Positions 649 to 57,649 of a stretch of DNA of 64,000 nt are shown in pieces (the stretch's first letter is position 1; every line of letters starts with the position of its first letter). Under the pieces are notes generated by a model, which searched no databases, was not told where the DNA came from, and saw only the letters and a program-made list of their open reading frames with translations. The stretch is from Chrysomallon squamiferum (lineage: Eukaryota; Animalia; Mollusca), in NCBI GenBank assembly GCA_012295275.1, contig CM022668.1, forward strand, positions 13,392,001 through 13,456,000. Reading direction: 5' to 3'. The position numbers and the translations under genes were made by a program.

Positions 649-13861
<13,213 letters not shown>

Positions 13862-22675: not shown

Positions 22676-23542
22676 CTAAAAAAAAAAAAAAAAAAAAAAA
22701 AAACTACGGACAAGAGAAAGGTCAATTAGGCACTTGAGAAGTCTGACAGGTCCACAGGTCACTGACAGTTTGCAAAGGTCAAGGACAGCACCTCGAATCA
22801 ATGTTAGCTGTAACCCAGAATTTCTTAAAAGATTTTTCAACTCTGCTTCTTTTGGCCACAGTGAGGAAAACTCAACCAGCGAATCGCCCTGCTTGAAGGG
22901 ATGAAAAGACAATGCTGGCAACCAGAAGATATTTCTCGGATCATCGTAAGTATCACTCGGAATACATGATTCATCATATGACGTCAAGAGGTTTTTTCTC
23001 TTTAGTGCCTGATTAACAATTACTCTGTTTCTGGGAGGATCAAAGAACTTGTGCCTATGGAAACGCTTGCATGAACATGGTGAAACTGCATAAGACTCAT
23101 GAAAAGCCTTTTGTTCTTGTAAATATGTCGACCGAGAAAGATAAAGCTGTGTTGATTGTGTCTTTGAAGTCTGCGATCTTTCAAGCTGTTTCTTACGTAT
23201 TTCTGGATTTCGAATATTGTGTTGAAATTTGGAGGAAGCTAACTGGACGCCATGCGACAAATCTTGCTGTGAATCAATTTCTCGCTTGTCTTGGTTTTGT
23301 CTGTATCTTGCTGCAGAATGTGGCGTGTGTCTGCTTGTGCCCCATGGACTAACTTGAACACTTTCAGTGAAGCTTTTTTGGTGGGTGTGGTCCAGATTCT
23401 GAGTGTCTGAATGCATGGCTTCCACCCAAAGAGACTGAGTAAAATCCTGTCCAGTTCTTTGGCCACCACGCCAATACAAAGCTCTCTTTGGGATACTGTT
23501 TCCTGAACTGATTTGAACCGAATTTGGAACATAGGGAAGCAT
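22676..23542 (-). CDS. Uncharacterised 288-aa ORF, apparently single exon
   Basis: Long non-repetitive ORF, more GC-rich than its flanks, ATG in tcaaaATG context. No recognisable domain; it runs into a poly-T tract, so the C-terminus is uncertain. Confidence 0.5.
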   Translation of the reverse strand: MLPYVPNSVQISSGNSIPKRALYWRGGQRTGQDFTQSLWVEAMHSDTQNLDHTHQKSFTESVQVSPWGTSRHTPHSAARYRQNQDKREIDSQQDLSHGVQLASSKFQHNIRNPEIRKKQLERSQTSKTQSTQLYLSRSTYLQEQKAFHESYAVSPCSCKRFHRHKFFDPPRNRVIVNQALKRKNLLTSYDESCIPSDTYDDPRNIFWLPALSFHPFKQGDSLVEFSSLWPKEAELKNLLRNSGLQLTLIRGAVLDLCKLSVTCGPVRLLKCLIDLSLVRSFFFFFFFF

Positions 23543-24975
23543 TTTGATAATTTTTAAAAGAAATTTACTTAAATAATTAGTTTAAAAAAAATTAATTTCA
23601 ACTCGATTTTAAAAATTAACTTTATTACCATTTTAATTATAATTTTAAATCTTTTTGCTTGTTTTAAAACCATTTTTTTTTTATTTCACATGATTTTGTC
23701 ATATAGTTACCATTATTTATTAAAATGACAGATAATTTATTTTATAACTATTTGGAATTCATAATTTAAAAATAAAATGTTGAATAAGATTTCAGTAGTA
23801 GTCTCCCCTTCAGTGTTATCAATTTAAAATTCAGCATGATTAATATTCTAAATCATAAATGAAATAAATAAATAAGTAAAAATATAAATGTTCTTGTGAT
23901 TAAATAAATATTGTATTGTTATGGTTTACCTGTGGGAATAAAAATATTATGGGTGAATAAGCAAAGGATAAAAAAAATGAGTTCATTAATTTATTAAGTA
24001 TAATAATAAATGTTTCTGGGTGAAAATTAAGTTTGTAAAAGCTGATTTAATTACTCTACTTATAATATAAGAACTACAAAAAGTTCTAATTAAAAAAAAT
24101 ATAAAAACAGATGTCATTATTATTACTACTGCTGTTTTATTAAGTGGCTTATTAATCACCCAGTCTTTTTAGTATATTAACACCAGCAGGGCGAAAAATC
24201 TAAGAATTGTTAAGTCTGTTTGTTCTCTATTGCCAAGGAGCATTAATCTCATTGTAAATTCTATGAATATTCATAAAGCTGTATAGCTTGCTGTCTTTAC
24301 ATGATTAAACACACAAATGTTTTCTCCAAGAACAAAACTTAAATATTTTAAGGGTTCAAGCATAAAAGTGAGTGCTGAGCATGTTTGAAGCAGAGGTGGT
24401 GAGGTTGAAAAGTTAGTGCCATTTGTGATTGTCATAATCATCTATACTGAAAGCAGTATTTAAGATCACCAGTTGTCCTTTCTTGATTTTCTTCTTCAGT
24501 TTATGAGAGTAGGAAAAGTATAGTTTTTAATAATTACTGCAAATGAAGAATTAAATACATTCATTGATCAATAACATAGAAATGTTAATCAATTTTTAGA
24601 ATAAACTTTTGTTACTTTAGAATAAACATTATGTTATGGAAATAATTTTTGGCTTTTTCATAATAAAAACAAAAATGAAAACAACAATTAAATAAATAAG
24701 TCAGAAAATAACCCTAAATAGTTAAAAAAAACTAAAAACTTTCATAATTGTAATCACTTTGAACTAAATGTAAGATCAGTATAAGTATGTCTGGTTTAAA
24801 GACATTCATGTTTTTATTACTATATGGAAAAATTATTTTGAACCTAACTTTATTTAGTATCAGTATTATAATTAATGAATATTCATGTACATTACAACAG
24901 AAATACAAAAACCTTAATTATTATGTATGTACATAAATATTTTAACTAATCTTGTTAAAGCCAATATTTACTGAC

Positions 24976-27050: not shown

Positions 27051-28488
27051 ATTATTTTATTTTCACATACGACTCTTCATTTCTGTAACCCTTTAGTCTT
27101 CATAAGTTAGTAGAAAAGTCATTAACACCAGTTTACAACTTTATTTTTAGGATAATATATATAATATATAATTATCTAGCATGCTGTTTGGATGTTAATA
27201 GCCGTGATCTGTTATCTAATACTACTAAAGTACTAGTAATAGTAGTATACTATATACTAATACTAATACTGTAATACTTACCGGAATCAAATAACGATGT
27301 AAATAACGAATAATATATACATAGCGGCAGTCACCTTGCCAAAATAACTTAGTGACAAATAATTAGTTTTCATTTTTAAATGATAAACACTCATTGTCAT
27401 TGTGTACACAAATTACCAACATACAAACATGGACGTTTTCATTCGTACATCATATATATATAATGATATCTTCTTTTTGCAGAATCTGTCAAATAAAAGT
27501 TTTGTTCTTGACACTGTGTACATACATAGTGGAATACGTAGCCTTTGATAGTAAACCTTTCTGAAGAGATTTGCCAGCAAGTAAACAATTAGAAAACGTT
27601 TACATGTTCTGAAAATATTAGATCACTGTATACATCACTGACTGAAAAACAAACAACAACAAACAATAAAAAAACCCTCCCCCCCAAAAAAAAAATAAAA
27701 TGAAAAAAAAAAAAAAAAATTATTACAATTTTTACCTTTCCTAATATAAAGTGAAGATGTGCCCGAAATGTCCATATACTACTAAAAATATCAGCAATCT
27801 AAGATCTAGTACTCTGGAATAATTTTAAAAACTGATATCAAGTCATTTTGTTTAGACAGGAATACACAAAACAATGTTGTATAATAAACAATACATAAGA
27901 CACTGGAACTGAAGTAGTGCGATAAGTCACCAGCAAGGATTGATCCTGGAACATATTATTCTGTGAAGTAACTGTACCCTATAGCATGATAATCCCTTTT
28001 TTATTTTTTTTTTAAAAAAAATTTATAATGAAATTGTCTGTTTAACAAGCCAAAGAGATCTGTACATATGGAAATCACATTATACCCTCCTGTTGTAAAC
28101 CAGCCATGGGGCACTGCCTGAAGTGATAGATAATCCAGTGTGGGTGTGGCAGTTAGGACTGAATCCAGAATATATTGCTCCTTAAATCCTAAATAATCTG
28201 TCAACCATAGGCTTTATAATTATATATTGAATAACAACAACAACAAGTAAATAAATAACTAAATAAAAACATTTTGGCTTTATGCTTGCCAGCTGAGTCA
28301 CTAATTATGACTCAGTATCAAAACTAGGAATTAAACCATAATAAGATGTGACTTGTAGTCCATTAATCCTTGAAGAATCCTCCATCTCTTAACAAGTAAC
28401 AACTACATAATGTTACATTTTCTGCAGATTAACTATGTGAGAAAGAACGACACCGATGCATGTAGGAGCCTAGGAGTAGGAGCCAGAT

Positions 28489-41366
<12,878 letters not shown>

Positions 41367-45223: not shown

Positions 45224-46278
45224 ATGTAAAAACGCACAATTTCGAATTGCTCATCTTTTAAGAAATATTAATTGTTTTATTTTAATATTATTTTGTGTTG
45301 CTTTCTTTCTTCTTCTGTTTCATCATCACCTTCGTATTATTATTGTTATTGCTGTTGTTATTGTTTAATGATACAATTAAAAACACTTTTTTTTAAAGTT
45401 TAATGATTTTTTCCCGCCGTACAGTTTGTTTAATATGAAATAATTATTAGGTATTCTGATTTCAGAACAAATCCGCTAAATCTTTACATTTACATAAAGG
45501 CTGGTTTATGTGTGTGTATTTGTTGGTGGCTGGGTTTGTTTTTGTATGTGTATGTGTTTGTATTAATAAGTTTAGACAAAGAAAACATTCTATGGGCTAT
45601 TCCTACTTATTGGCAGCAGCATACTATATTTTGTGTCTACCCTCCCACAGAGGGAAAAATATCGGTGACTCTGCTCGGGTTGGAATGGGAAATATATATA
45701 ATTCTGTAACTACACCTGCGACTGCACTCTTTTACTACTGCTTATTTTACTTCTACTCTCCCTTCTAATACTACTGCCATAAATAAATAAATAAATAAAT
45801 AAAATAAAATAAATGAAGAAATGAAATGAAATAAATTTCTTTCTGAATAATTTGAATGAACAACAACAACAACAACAACAACAACAAAATAAACAATAAA
45901 AAATTTAAAAAATATATATATTAAAAAAAAAAAATATAAAAAAATATAAAAAATTCTTCCACCATTCAAAACGAAACATTCATTCTCTCATTCAGTGCTT
46001 TAAGAAAATGTTCTTCCAAATCATGTCGTATGTGTCGAACCTTTACGTGGCAAACATTTTCTGTGAGCCGCACGTGCTGGTAACTTTCCTAGCAGACGAG
46101 TATGTTGAGACAGAAAATGATCCGATGTTAATTAAAAGACTAAATAACAGCAGACGCAATCTCTGCGATTGCTGTACATTTTAAATCTTTCATTTCGACC
46201 GTTGGTTTATTTAACGGTGATTTGTTTGCGACTGTTTCCATTTGATTTGAAATCCTATTCTACTTTCACTAACCTGAA

Positions 46279-46913
46279 ATGGAAAGCAGTTCCATTGCTG
46301 AATCACGTACAAAAGCGATGATAAATCTGAGATTTGTTCAAGGAAAATACGAAGAAGTATTTAAATTGTTAACGGTAAGGATATTTTTATTTTATTTCCA
46401 CGTAACCAAAAACTGAACAATCGAATATATAATAAGAATATATTTATTTTATTTCATTTATATAGGGTACCTTTTTCATTTGATTTAAAAAAAAAAAAAA
46501 AAGATTTTGACTACATAATATATATATTTTGTTAGTCAGACTTTATTGTTTTAGTTCATTGTATTAAAATGTTGTACATTGTTATATAAATCTTTATAAA
46601 GTTTTACAGATTATTAATTTGTATCTAAATATTAAACTTTGTATTACATTTGTTAAAAAGTTTGTAAAAGAATCGATCTTAATGTTAAATAATGTTATAT
46701 TTTGTTATTCAAGTGTTAAACTATTTAAATTACTTTTTCGCGCCTACTAAAATAGTCATTTTGTATTAAAGTGTTATACTTAGCATTTTAAATGTTGCAT
46801 TATTAAAGACTGTTTTTATTTATTTATTTATTTATTTATTTATTATTTTTTTTATATATAATATCGTTATTAATTTTAATTTTTTTTTTTTTTTTTGAAT
46901 ATTCATATCATTC

Positions 46914-46957
<44 letters not shown>

Positions 46958-49442
46958 TAATAATTTTGTATTATTGAAGGAAAACACATTTTCGGATAAA
47001 ACTGGACTTCTTGATCTGTGGGATGACGCACATTACAAGGCGTATGAAAATAAATGGGGACGGAAACTAACAGCTCTTATGCGATTTAGAATCCGCAAAA
47101 GGTAATAAATTAATTGTAAAAAAGACATTAGATGACAAATGTATAAGGTGTTCATTTAGCTGAAATTTTGTATAATGAATTGACGAAGCCAATAAACTAT
47201 TAGGAATTACTGTTAATTATTAAATTGCGTGCATTACTATTATTATTTTTTTTTGTATGTGTATACATTTGCGCGCGTCTGCGAAAAAGAGGGAGACAGA
47301 TGTGTGGATAGAGACAGAAAGAGACAGAAAAATGATGATTCAGAATAATTTTAATATCTTAAGCCAAGTGAAAAATTAATTGTCTTCACATATAAGTGAA
47401 TATGATTATACTTGGTGATGAAGGGTCATACGTTGAAAATGATCTAGAGTATTTTTATCGGCAAACTTTTAGATTAAAAATAACTTAATTATCGATACGT
47501 TTCTAGGTTCCTGTATTTATCTAACACGTGACCGGCGTTTATAATTCAAAACAACAATGTATTGTCTTTAAAACATATGCATATTTCTAACTATATATAT
47601 ATATATATTGAGTGGAAAATACCACAATTAAAATACCAACATCAATATTTTATTAAATAATTTATTTGGACTATCCACCGACTTCAAAATATTTGTCAAA
47701 AGGTATTGAGAAAAATATTTTGTTACATAATTTCGTCCAGATATCCAGCACCTCCAAATAATTCTCCAAAAAAAGAAGAAATTAATTAACAAACAATTAA
47801 ACAAATAAATAATAAAATTCAAAAAAAAAAAAGAGAGGAAAATGCGTATGCAGTAATGAAGGAAAAAAAAAAAAAAATACAAATTTTGTAAATAATTTCG
47901 TCCAGATATCCGCCACCTCCGAACGTCTGTCCAAACGGAGTGAGGCCGTCCGCGCGCCTCGGCGAACCAGCGTGTCGTCTGCTCAAGTCGTGGTTCCTGG
48001 AGCACCAGCATCACCCCTACCCTTCGAAGGACGAGAAGGAGAAGCTGTCGACAGTGACGGGCCTCTCCCTGGAGCAGATAAAAACGTGGTTCGCCAACGC
48101 GAGGAGAAGAACGAAGCTGAAAATGACGAGCAGCAGCATCATCAGGAAGAACGAGAAATGGTGAGTACTGAAATTTTTAAGGGATTGTATTTAGGGATTA
48201 TTTTTCTGAATTTTTTTTAAATCAAGAGATGGTTTCCCTTCTAAAAAAAAAAAAAAAAAAGACAGATGTCCCGCGTAAAGCAGACATGTCATTTGATAGA
48301 CAAAAATTCTTTGTTGGGGTCGTGTAAATGTACATCCTGTACACCCCTTGTTCAATAGTGGTACTGCTCCAATCTGTTCAGCAAGCAAGTGAAACATCAG
48401 AGTTGATCAGTTAGCTGACTGATTTATTTCATCACACTATTGTTATATATGGCACCTGTTTAAAGTGTTTTCTTATAATCTATACAAGCAACAGCGAGAG
48501 CCTAACTGCAATCTGGTAAATCCAGTTAACACATCTTTATAAATAAATCCACAAATGAATCAATATAAATAAAACTAACTTCAAAAAATTTTGTTCTGTG
48601 TTTAGTTGTATCATACTTGGGTTTCGTTGCCAGGTAACGACCAGTTTCCACACATGTCATTGCAGCTGTGGTTGCTAAAGACCTCGTTGATGCCATCAGG
48701 TCCTCTGTCCAGCTCTCCGTAGGCACGTTCAACTGAGTGAACTGTCGGCCCGGAAATTACAATTTCTGTTAAGTCGGGTGAAATAACACCTTGAAGACCA
48801 CACACAACGCATTCACCTCCACTCGCGTGATAAGTAAAATGTACGAAAGCAGCCAGAACATTGTCATCAGTGTCGTTAACGACTTCGCCATTTCGACTGA
48901 CAAAAGCTTTAAAATGCTTGTCGATTTTGGCTTCGAACATGACCAAGTCTCCTTCGCTGAGAGAACGATGCCGCCGTTTCACAGCGTGCAGCGATGCAAC
49001 GTCGCACACTTTAGCGAAGAAGGGAAGAAGAACGGTAACTCTCGTCTTCGTGAAACGTTTTTCGTTAAACTGCTTGGCGTGTTGCTGAGCGACTTTGCAC
49101 CTGTTTATTTCAGCGTCCCTTTCGCCGTCTGTCCATTTCCCAGAGCGCTTCACTTTGACGCAGACTTTCTCTGCGTTGAGAGGGCCATCGCCTTGTGCAA
49201 TTCCCACGTACACCTTCTTCCTTGTGCCCTTTCTCCATGAGGAGTCCTCAAAATGCACGCTGTACGCAGCACCATCGTTGTCTGTACTTCTGTAAGTACT
49301 GTTGCACAGGAGACTCATTGCGGTTTCTAAAATGAATCGTTAATACAGTCCCATTGTAACAAACGTTTTCTGTGTTTTTTGTCTCTCTCTGTCTCTGTCT
49401 CTCTCTCTCTCTGTGTCTGTCTCTGTCAGTCTCAGTTTCTCT

Positions 49443-51232: not shown

Positions 51233-52564
51233 TAAAAAAAATGAAAGACAAAAAATTATTTAAAAATTCTATTTCTGTTTTTACTGCAGCAAAGAAAAAG
51301 CGAACGTAGGGAAAATAAAAATAAAAAAGGAGAACGAAACCAACACGCAATGGGCCAACTACACAGACATTTCAGATGATGGAAGAGAGACAGCACCACT
51401 GGAAACAACTTTGGTGGAGCCCAGAATTGAACCTGCACCCCTGGACATGCGGTGTCCTTCGAAAATCACTGAAGTGGAACGAAAGACGGCTTTGGCAAAC
51501 ATGAGGAAAAATTTGCAAAATTCACAACAGTATCAGGAAAGGTTGGTTGTGATACCTGATTGTCAGTGTTAATAATAGATGAATTGATGTGCAGATATGC
51601 TTATAGGTGAATGTTTGTATTAAATAGCAGATATTAATGGTTTATGAAGTATTTGGAAAATGTATTTTTTGTTGTGTCTTTTGTGCTTTCTTTTTAATGT
51701 TAGACATACACACACACACACCCACACATGCATGCACAAATTCACATATATGTAAACACACAAACAATTAAAAAAGATATTCAGCATTTCCAGATTACAT
51801 GTTGACAATCACAAATAACAACAACAACAACAACAACAACAAAAATAGAAATAATAAATAAATAAATAAATAAAAAAATAAATAAAATAAAATAAAAATA
51901 AAATAAAAAATACTTTTTATGTTTATGGAAAATGGGCTACAAAAAAAAAAAAAAACATGCATTTGTACCTAGCACAGTTGAAACATTTTTCACTCACCTT
52001 ACGTAGTATTTATCTATTTCAGCTTTTCACCACAGCAAACACACTACTACAGCAGCCACTATTTGTCCAGTTTAGTAAACTTTGTGAATAACAGCAACAG
52101 CAGCAGCAGCAGCAGCAATACACTGACAGCCACAAATTTTTCCACAGGGAATCATCATTTGCCATATTCTCCATCGTCCAGTAACCCATCACATTTCTTG
52201 AGATCATCCTACAATTGGCACAATCATTCGGACCACAAGATCTGGTTGCCGAGGCAACAACATCCTGTTTCATCATCACATTCTGCTGACAGTTGGCCAG
52301 TGACAGCTGTTGATATGCAGAGAAGTGGTGAGTGTGTGATTCAGGTTGTGAATAAATAGTGTGTTCCATTTTAGAGCTGGTTAAATGCTGGATGTTATTT
52401 TGTTTCTTGTTGAACTTAAGAGACAGAAAAGTACACCTGTAGAGTATTGAGGTGCTTCAGGTGTTTCTGTTTTTTACTTGTTTTGTTTGTTTGTTTTTTT
52501 TTTTTTTTTTTTTTTATATTATTCTTGTGTGTTTTGCTTTGTATTATTTGTTTCATTTATGTAT

Positions 52565-53184: not shown

Positions 53185-54365
53185 CAAGGAAACAAGCCTT
53201 GGAGATAAAAATAAATAATACATATATATATATATATTTTTTTTTAAATTGACTTTCAACAAATATAAACAGATACATCAAATAAACGGAATATTTTATC
53301 AACAGGTGTGTAATATATTTCAGTATTCTATTTCAGAAAGTACACCACCAGTTACATCACCATCATCAATCACCTGTCCGACATCAGACGGTGGACGTCT
53401 GCCACCTCTGTCTCCTCAGATATTCGGCTGGACTCCAGGCTCCAGGGCAGTCTCCACCCCACCACCCAGCCAGTTCATATATTACAACAATCAACCACTG
53501 GTCAGTTCCAGACCACTGTCCACTTCAAGTCCACGACAAGTGCCTAACTACAGTACCTTTAATCTGAGACCGTGTCTACCGGTGAATCAGATATGGCTTC
53601 AGAATTTGTCTCAGTTTCCACATCATTATCCTCTTCCTTATGGAATGGTGACACCAGTCAGGCAGCCATGTTTGGATGCTGCAGTGGTTGATGTTGCACC
53701 AGTAACTTCTGCAGGCTTCTCTGGATACTCTTCTTCGTATGTGATGATGTCAAACAGAGGAGGTGCAGTATTTTATATTGCTGATTGGTGGTTTTGTAAC
53801 ATAATATATATTTTTTTATATATTTCCAGCTAATGACAAGAATTATTTTGGTATTACTTCTGTGGTGAAATACATATTTATACACATCCAAAAATTGTAC
53901 ATCATTTAAATATTCCTTTAGTTGACTTATAAAGTATACTGTTTGCTACTTTTTCTATGGTTTAAATACACTTCCAAATAAGGAAACAAATTATTGTAGT
54001 AGAAATATTTTCCCTGTAATTCCAGTACAAATTATAATAGTAGTAATCTTTTCCCTGTAGTTCCAGTACAAATTATTATAGTAGTAATCTTTTTCCTGTA
54101 GTTCCAGTACAAATTATTACAGTAGTAATCTTTTTCCTGTAGTTTCAGTCTCTCATTTGTTCATCTTCAAATTTCTTTAACTTATGCTGCAGCTTGTAAT
54201 GGTAAATCGGTTGTTTCTACTTCACCTTTGAATGGCTACCAGGGAGATAACTCTAGGTGTTTTGAATCGGGTTGGAGTGTTGTTGCAGATCATCAACATG
54301 ATAACGTCTTTGTTCCTTCAACAGTCAGCAACAGTGTTGAAGAATCAGTTGAGAAAATGAGGTAG
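46279..54365 (+). CDS. Homeobox transcription factor: partial SIX-type domain plus TALE-class homeodomain (ANHX-like / SIX-like), ~550 aa with a long S/P/Q-rich tail
   Basis: Phase-consistent exons 46279-46374 (MESSSIAESRTKAMINLRFVQGKYEEVFKLLT), 46980-47101 (LLDLWDDAHYKAYENKWGRKLTALMRFRIRK), 47906-48160 (YPPPPNVCPNG...LKSWFLEHQHHPYPSKDEKEKLSTVTGLSLEQIKTWFANARRR), 51290-51541, 52023-52327, 53337-53736, 54143-54365. The first six exons are well supported; the 3' end is less certain. Confidence 0.85.
48611..49318 (-). CDS. Alpha-kinase (eEF2K/MHCK/TRPM7 fold) domain-only protein, probable pseudokinase, nested in the homeobox gene intron
   Basis: 235 aa with alpha-kinase landmarks VCVKVK, AQQHAKQFN, MFEAKIDKHF, LAAFVHFTYHASGG, VVCGLQGV, ISGPTVHS, YGELDRGPDGI and zinc ligands HSCNDMC. 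CDS has no intron; putative 5'UTR intron 49327-49811 (GAG|gtaaga ... ttttag|AAACCGCAATG); minus-strand AATAAA at 48423-48428. Confidence 0.9.
   Translation of the reverse strand: MSLLCNSTYRSTDNDGAAYSVHFEDSSWRKGTRKKVYVGIAQGDGPLNAEKVCVKVKRSGKWTDGERDAEINRCKVAQQHAKQFNEKRFTKTRVTVLLPFFAKVCDVASLHAVKRRHRSLSEGDLVMFEAKIDKHFKAFVSRNGEVVNDTDDNVLAAFVHFTYHASGGECVVCGLQGVISPDLTEIVISGPTVHSVERAYGELDRGPDGINEVFSNHSCNDMCGNWSLPGNETQV
49870..50165 (-). promoter_or_regulatory. Putative promoter of the nested alpha-kinase gene with a duplicated STAT / AP-1-CRE / NF-kB motif module
   Basis: TATA-like TATTTATA at ~49873-49880 (minus strand). Module 1: TTCACAAGAA 49884-49893, TGACGTCA 49897-49904, GTGGAATCCC 49912-49921. 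Module 2: TTCAAAGAA 50095-50103, TGAGTCA 50107-50113, GGGGAATCCCC 50121-50131. Confidence 0.55.
53995..54150. repeat. ~41-bp tandem repeat ending at a candidate acceptor
   Basis: gtagtaatctttttcctgtagttccagtacaaattatta, 3-4 copies. Confidence 0.85.
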
Positions 54366-56494: not shown

Positions 56495-57649
56495 GCAGCC
56501 ATTGTACCTGGTGAGTTTCGTTGCTTATTGTATCTGCATCAACCAGATACACATTGCACCCAGGTCATCAAGCAGATGTATGCTACACTCTTTCTTCCTG
56601 ATAAACCAGGCTACCTGAATCTGTCAGTTAGAAAGTGTATCTCCTGCCATTAAATAACTGTGTCGTACTGTGGTACCAGGACATTCAGCTTGTTCAGTGA
56701 TGGATTACATGGATGGATGGTCCAGTTCGTCACACGTTGAGGGTTTTTTCTCTGAATTAGTACCCGAGCAGGGTTTGTTTCAGGTAGCTGCATCATGAAC
56801 AAAAGCGAAGGGGGATTTATGTAAATGTTTGGTGGTTTTTAATTTCAGATCCTGTTCAGTGATATACTATTACTCATTGCCACAGGCCCCCATAAAACAG
56901 GGAAAATTCATGTCGTGACCTTTTATCTGACCCTCGGAGCATTTTGTGAATGTATAACCTTGATTTTATAACACTGTTAATCATCATGAACAAAGAATTT
57001 TTTATCTTTTTTAAAAGAATCCCTGTTAATTATGTAGGCTACAAAATTTTGTAAAGTCGAGTATTTTGTATAGTGGTTATTTTTGGTTAACGTTTTTGTT
57101 AATGTTACATGCACGAAGAAGCGATGTAAATAATTTTTCTATGGTTACAAGTGATTTTAATAATTAATTCGTGGCACCATCATGTGATGATAATAAAGTA
57201 AGATAGTAATGCAGAAAAAAGAGGCCGATATTGGGCATGGAGGTGGTCATTTTCCCTTTCTTTTTGGTGATGTGTGTAGAACATAAAGTATATTCTGATG
57301 GATTAGAATTGGATTAATTGTCAATTTGTCAGGGCATTTAGGGGTATTTACCTCAGTAGATGGAAGCACAACCATGAAAAGATCCATTAATCTCTTGTTT
57401 CTTCTCTTGTATGGTTAAAAAAGAAAAAATAAAGAAAAAAGAAAAAAAAAAAAAAAAATAAAATAAAAGTAGCCTGCCTGTACCTTTATGAGGATTAATA
57501 TTAAAATAAGGTTAAGATGGTTGAGAACTGTTCACGATGTCTCCATTTTCATCTATTTTTAGCAACACGAGGCAGCACAGCTTCTGTTGAATCTGCACAG
57601 CAACAAACAGCCAGTTTCCATGGCAACAGATCCATCCTACAACAAGTGA
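56495..57649 (+). CDS. Candidate extra 3' exons of the homeobox gene: 16-nt microexon 56495-56510 and terminal exon 57563-57649
   Basis: Using donor AG|GTAGTG after 54361, ttcag|GCAGCCATTGTACCTG|gtgagt converts phase 2 to phase 0 and joins ttttag|CAACAC..., giving MRQPLYLQHEAAQLLLNLHSNKQPVSMATDPSYNK*. Confidence 0.45.

Follow-up and report, generated by a model that had tools for sequence, protein, structure and literature searches.

A gene joining a SIX domain to a TALE-class homeodomain in Chrysomallon squamiferum, with relatives in molluscs and cnidarians

One locus of the mollusc Chrysomallon squamiferum carries part of a SIX domain directly before a homeodomain of TALE type, and its family mixes features by which homeobox classes are defined. 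Is this a SIX gene, a TALE gene or a chimera of the two, and how old is the combination? We analysed the locus within a window, the whole stretch of 64,000 nt of contig CM022668.1 described here. The explanation that fits best overall, and that we hold to be fairly probable, is an old SIX-plus-TALE family made up of TALE clade XIII, cnidarian relatives and probably ANHX, in which both domains would read DNA jointly and the Chrysomallon protein would act as an Eya-independent repressor. Papers are cited by PMC identifier.

Gene structure and the extent of the SIX domain

An earlier note on this DNA had placed a three-exon gene at 46279..48160. The three exons have GT-AG ends and intron phases 0 and 2, and they are free of stops when joined in frame. 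The proposed gene end at 48160 did not hold, however, as a phase-2 donor at 48161 leads to six further predicted exons ending at 57649, for a total of nine exons and 575 aa in one open frame. The model is as follows.

46279..46374, + strand: exon 1 from the ATG, 96 nt; SIX-domain helices 3-4, without helices 1-2 (helices assigned by alignment to the Haliotis model)
46980..47101, + strand: exon 2, 122 nt, phases 0/2; SIX-domain helices 5-6; SIX1_SD E 3.4e-7; an exon of contig L002 is equal in length and phases
47906..48160, + strand: exon 3; proline-rich SIX end, CPNG linker and 63-aa TALE homeodomain (Ser5, PYP loop, Ala50); Homeobox_KN E 3.8e-20
51290..51541, + strand: predicted exon 4; motifs YTDISDD and PLDMR common to Gigantopelta; tblastn E 1e-5, with a frame check
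52023..52327, + strand: predicted exon 5; Ser/His/Asn-rich; placed by splice sites and phase only
53337..53762, + strand: predicted exon 6; LSPQIFGW motif common to Gigantopelta; tblastn E 5e-6; donor picked by phase
54193..54361, + strand: predicted exon 7; placed by splice sites and phase only
56495..56510, + strand: candidate micro-exon 8, 16 nt; takes phase 2 to phase 0, with AG/GT ends and a matching phase; the weakest part of the model
57563..57649, + strand: predicted last exon 9; C-terminal motif EAAQLLLNL of the family and stop; best match of the motif profile in the window, E 0.006

Homology supports the predicted exons 4, 6 and 9, and splice sites and phase place exons 5, 7 and 8; the 16-nt exon 8 is in the model only because it fixes the phase. 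A near-identical version of the 575-aa model aligns over its full length with Gigantopelta P0002 (36% over 632 columns, E 3e-100). All junctions of the Chrysomallon gene are predicted splicing, and three RNA runs gave no cover on exons 2-3, which is uninformative either way. DNA run X1 covers exons 2-3 and has four exonic allele differences, three of them silent and the fourth located after the homeodomain. The locus is likely an intact transcription-factor gene with predicted splicing and, judged from its sequence, the gene is real and probably functional. A truncated SIX domain and, at 47730, a degenerate second copy of the acceptor of exon 3 could be taken as marks of a decaying pseudogene, but such decay is very improbable with the frame open across nine predicted exons, core identity to Gigantopelta at 73% and allele differences that are mostly silent.

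A degenerate tandem copy of the intron 2/exon 3 boundary lies at about 47710-47790 (+), 165 nt upstream of the real boundary, and is also found in run X1; its acceptor 47741, if used, would give a short SIX-fragment protein without a homeodomain. Nested antisense in intron 3 is an intronless alpha-kinase ORF (48611-49339, - strand; Pfam E 3.5e-27). A pseudokinase or a decayed copy is possible, as it reads GLQG and ISGP in place of the usual alpha-kinase DLQG and LTDP. The upstream neighbour (about 28480-40650, +) is likely KRIT1 from its matches to KRIT-type NUDIX_5 (below the cut-off), ankyrin and FERM_M. Further upstream are a multi-exon ankyrin-repeat gene (about 2076-12100, -) and a 301-codon stop-free frame with no Pfam match (22679-23581, -), possibly an antisense shadow or a mobile-element remnant.

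The C-terminal part of a SIX domain had been recognised by eye in exons 1 and 2, and profile searches agree. Exon 2 alone exceeds the SIX1_SD cut-off (31.1 bits, cut-off 27.4; profile positions 74-107 of 113), and Homeobox_KN matches exon 3, as anticipated. Exon 1 alone has no Pfam match; it is the sole match among 2716 six-frame segments of the window to a profile built on the N-terminal half of the SIX domain in this family (E 6e-4, the next 0.6). The in-frame TAA reported just upstream of the ATG is located at 46270-46272. The protein starts at about position 44 of SIX1_SD, like Gigantopelta P0001, and at about residue 72 of the Haliotis model; it lacks the helices at residues 38-53 and 57-66 of that model, which include the Eya-binding helix 1.

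The N-terminal truncation proposed on these grounds is in our view quite probably real: P0001 has the same start, both RefSeq isoforms of Gigantopelta begin at the identical place, and no missing upstream SIX exon was found by the N-half profile among the 2716 window segments, a search that short exons might escape. One candidate upstream exon (46008-46099) was rejected when the profile score fell (16.5 vs 18.3 bits). It is rather unlikely that the truncation is only apparent and that an unseen upstream exon supplies SIX helices 1-2, leaving the protein full length and Eya-competent. In-phase AG sites directly 3' of the ATG speak for such an exon, as do the whole SIX domains of nine of the ten scanned relatives and the case of the old oyster model K1P313. 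That model is N-terminally short and newer models are whole, so truncations can be annotation artefacts. With truncation preferred, the Chrysomallon copy offers a test, made by nature, of how a SIX protein works when the Eya helix is missing.

A homeodomain between TALE and SINE

The TALE spacing and Ala50 described in the earlier note are present (W-x7-PYP and WFANARRR), and so is CPNG at the linker position where SINE proteins have WDGE. SIX1 has W-x4-PYP, which leaves a 3-residue gap against the Gigantopelta relative, and the 63-aa homeodomain has three extra residues between helices 1 and 2, as TALE homeodomains do. Compared alone with PDB proteins, the homeodomain scores 51 bits with PKNOX/MEIS, 47 with TGIF, 40 with PBX and 32 with SIX1. 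For the whole unit of SIX domain and homeodomain, SIX1 is best by sequence (profile E 1.7e-32). SIX1 is also the best fold match of the AlphaFold model of the Haliotis member (pTM 0.58), with Foldseek E 2.4e-7 and VIA Z 13.1, 161 aligned, rmsd 11.9; the two domains are probably set at another angle to each other, which would account for the high rmsd. Homeodomain position 5 is Ser in Chrysomallon and is Arg or Lys in none of 19 family homeodomains. A non-basic residue here is a SIX trait, unlike canonical TALE classes (PMC4901127). At position 50, 13 of 16 family rows compared have Ala, Chrysomallon included, and three have Ser; Ala50 also occurs in Irx and Mkx (PMC4901127).

Among the features that define SINE genes, a SIX domain N-terminal to the homeodomain (the C-terminal part only) and a non-basic position 5 are found here, whereas a 60-aa homeodomain, Lys50 and the Eya-binding helix 1 are absent; relatives with a whole SIX domain do have helix 1. 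Since it departs from both the 60-residue length and Lys50, the gene should be described as having a TALE-class homeodomain with a SIX domain and should not be filed as a SIX gene. That SIX-domain helices 3-6 are directly joined to a TALE homeodomain is, from the predicted protein, nearly certain.

Relatives, shared introns and the ANHX question

Gigantopelta aegis P0001 is the nearest relative (identical start and 65% identity over 158 aa; one match of 41 candidates). The two genes are sisters with support 98/98, which suggests a gastropod-like mollusc as host. Further searches gave 8 matches from 939 candidates and 16 from 2202. In the HMMER search with exon 3, multi-homeodomain proteins took up many of the places; among the matches listed (150 of 8181) there were at least 12 family rows and no ANHX. 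Named mollusc members come from Haliotis, Mizuhopecten, five oysters, Octopus and Argonauta, and cnidarian members from Clytia and the corals Oculina and Montipora; databases call them 'sine oculis-like', 'six1-like', 'ceh-34-like' or uncharacterised. The protostome scope first given to the family was thus too narrow, as the cnidarian members lie outside it. All ten members scanned passed the SIX1_SD cut-off, nine of them over nearly the whole profile, compared to neither of two other TALE controls. The W-x7-PYP spacing occurs in 15 of the 16 rows compared, the exception being Montipora (W-x5-PYP). Oyster members have Ser50 and a whole SIX domain, and the Haliotis and Clytia members share 46% identity in the core. 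A PLDMR-like motif occurs only in Gigantopelta, the Chrysomallon gene and, loosely, octopods, while the C-terminal motif is found in 12 of 17 relatives and was not found in Clytia or the two corals. Montipora P0180 and Oculina P0178 are long-branched and miss five residues before SIX helix 6, and the P0180 homeodomain loop is two residues shorter than in TALE.

The best evidence that mollusc and cnidarian genes form one family is the shared introns, as the homeodomain tree cannot show it. In contig L001, which matches the Clytia protein at 99% identity, intron 1 falls at the same codon and phase, and intron 2 is absent. Contig L002 (1578-2061) encodes a whole SIX domain with both introns, and one of its exons measures exactly 122 nt; the homeodomain exon is outside the matched part. 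In the homeodomain-only tree, built with 45 of 98 ungapped TALE homeodomains from 138 non-family matches, with no mixture model and with Montipora omitted for its shorter loop, the best tree does not keep the 19 family rows together (3 changes), and they form a single group in 0% of 200 bootstrap trees; one family clade is nevertheless not rejected (AU p 0.48). The mollusc group including CgTALE5 has support 83/89 in this tree and 96/95 with the SIX domain added, TALE-XIII being represented in both trees by its mollusc members. Taken together, a single family of mollusc and cnidarian genes is highly probable from these sequences, and with shared introns it would be at least as old as the cnidarian-bilaterian ancestor.

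Part of the family is already in print under another description. The oyster member K1P313, in the 90% cluster of match P0006, is Cgi_TALE5 (CGI_10014640), listed as TALE clade XIII, a clade that 'only just' met naming criteria (PMC6118893). It was classed by homeodomain only (PMC6118893, PMC5322547); Table S1 of Paps 2015 leaves 'other domains' blank for TALE5, and the text of that paper gives its expression as following the trochophore stage. In calcisponges, SciHD35531 and LcoHD71216 have a partial sine oculis domain and a homeodomain similar to both TALE and SINE (PMC4083861, 2014). Novelty is therefore partial: the homeodomain family and the calcisponge SIX-plus-TALE-like genes were on record, but we did not find the SIX domain of TALE-XIII in print. 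The terms 'SIX domain' and 'ANHX' have 0 occurrences in the main texts of PMC6118893, PMC5322547 and PMC8524836, and a search that left most subscription papers outside, so that absence is unproven, found no paper joining TALE-XIII, the SIX domain, the cnidarian genes and ANHX. With its SIX domain, pre-bilaterian age and likely ANHX link, TALE-XIII has apparently gone unrecognised as part of one ancient family. The upstream domain was also considered as the spiralian PADRE domain; this was dropped, as SIX1_SD explains the region and the family is TALE-XIII. A starred group of 12 homeodomain rows, judged SPILE-like by eye, does not include the family, and CgTALE5 is outside SPILE by the text order of Fig. 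S1 in PMC8524836.

For the likeness to ANHX suggested in the earlier note, a language-model score gives a lead. The Haliotis and the Clytia domain pairs both have 'ANHX protein (Fragment)' as their top ESM Atlas cluster, at 0.93 each (215 and 211 of 256 features). The score comes without alignment or E-value, and per the tool shuffled proteins get to 0.9 in 4-10% of trials. The next cluster, a canonical-looking 'SIX homeobox 9', scores 0.87. Orthology of the family with vertebrate ANHX appears somewhat probable to us. The family could instead be unrelated to ANHX, which would then be a fast-evolving vertebrate offshoot of canonical SIX genes, alike only as a divergent SIX-domain protein. This we consider doubtful, since ANHX comes first for two members 46% identical in the core; it draws on the listing of ANHX under the SIX class and its grouping with SIX1 and SIX6 in a homology-group table (PMC5928047), on the small Atlas margin over other SIX clusters (0.93 vs 0.87) and on the lack of a named deuterostome member in the word-based family searches. 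Those searches returned no canonical SIX proteins either and are thus too insensitive to show absence of deuterostome members. A DNA-pattern search of genome contigs for canonical SIX homeoboxes gave 0 matches. The naming of ANHX is given in PMC5094009, and the gene is reported as a spermatogonial marker (PMC9713473). Membership of ANHX in the family would provide an orphan homeobox gene of humans with an ancient ancestry and with model species.

Origin, proposed function and comparison with known systems

The word 'fused' in the earlier note may mislead, because the closest relative is collinear with SIX1. The alignment of this Gigantopelta relative with SIX1 begins in the middle of the SIX domain, runs through the whole homeodomain and has gaps of only 2, 1 and 3 residues. 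Collinearity across domain, linker and homeodomain favours common descent of the whole unit over shuffling. A chimera, in which shuffling had placed a SIX domain of early animals before an unrelated TALE homeobox and the gene would be silent on SIX-class origin, is unlikely. The homeodomain does score as clearly TALE-like and a phase-2 intron lies near the domain boundary; this intron is, however, inside the SIX1_SD region, upstream of the proline-rich end, and is absent in L001, and position 5 is SIX-like. Under common descent, the loop may have been lost in SIX or regained in the family.

We tentatively suggest that the SIX domain originated next to a TALE homeodomain before cnidarians and bilaterians diverged, and perhaps even before sponges. 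The loop of three residues would later have disappeared from canonical SIX genes, which also came to have Lys50. Human ANHX and TALE-XIII, together with the calcisponge genes and the 'six1-like' genes of cnidarians, would make up an overlooked fourth SIX-domain family. The Montipora loop, two residues shorter, indicates that loop loss can happen within the family. Trees in which TALE and SIX classes mix have been put down to artefact (PMC2211742). The family makes it testable whether SIX genes descend from TALE genes. A clade called 'lophotrochozoan-specific', with weak support, proves to have a SIX domain as well as relatives among cnidarians.

In SIX1, helix 6 of the SIX domain makes contact with DNA jointly with helix 3 of the homeodomain, and helix 1 is where EYA2 attaches (PMC4901127). 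The basic helix-6 motif has three arginines invariant in seven aligned relatives and is present in the Chrysomallon protein, so two-part DNA binding is likely kept, and helix 6 and homeodomain helix 3 would read DNA jointly as in SIX1. With Ala50 instead of Lys50, the protein would favour a different DNA site. The Chrysomallon and Gigantopelta copies, which have no helix 1, would not recruit the Eya co-activator; for Chrysomallon this follows if the helix is truly absent, no missing exon having been found in the window. PLDMR and the last-exon motif appear to resemble CtBP- and Sin3-binding motifs, and with such C-terminal motifs the protein could act as a repressor. An Eya-independent repressor is the most likely role for the Chrysomallon protein, one to which we would give even chances.

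Compared to known systems, the gene resembles the SINE class (SIX1-6, sine oculis, Optix) in having a SIX domain directly before the homeodomain, collinear with SIX1, and a non-basic residue 5; it differs in the 63-aa looped homeodomain, Ala50 for Lys50, CPNG for WDGE and the missing Eya-binding helix. With Irx and Mkx it shares a TALE homeodomain and Ala50. SPILE genes, which have a PADRE domain, also have a TALE homeodomain, and a SPILE-like two-homeodomain control has no SIX1_SD match. ANHX is known from chordates and was compared with the family by language-model score only; about 99-100% of its cluster members have SIX1_SD and a homeodomain. The calcisponge genes, by description only, are alike in their partial SIX domain and TALE/SINE-like homeodomain, the Sycon gene having a four-residue insertion. 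TALE clade XIII with Cgi_TALE5 is the same family, joined with the Chrysomallon gene in the mollusc group (96/95), and the two differ in that oysters have Ser50 and a whole SIX domain, whereas the Chrysomallon gene has Ala50 and is without helices 1-2.
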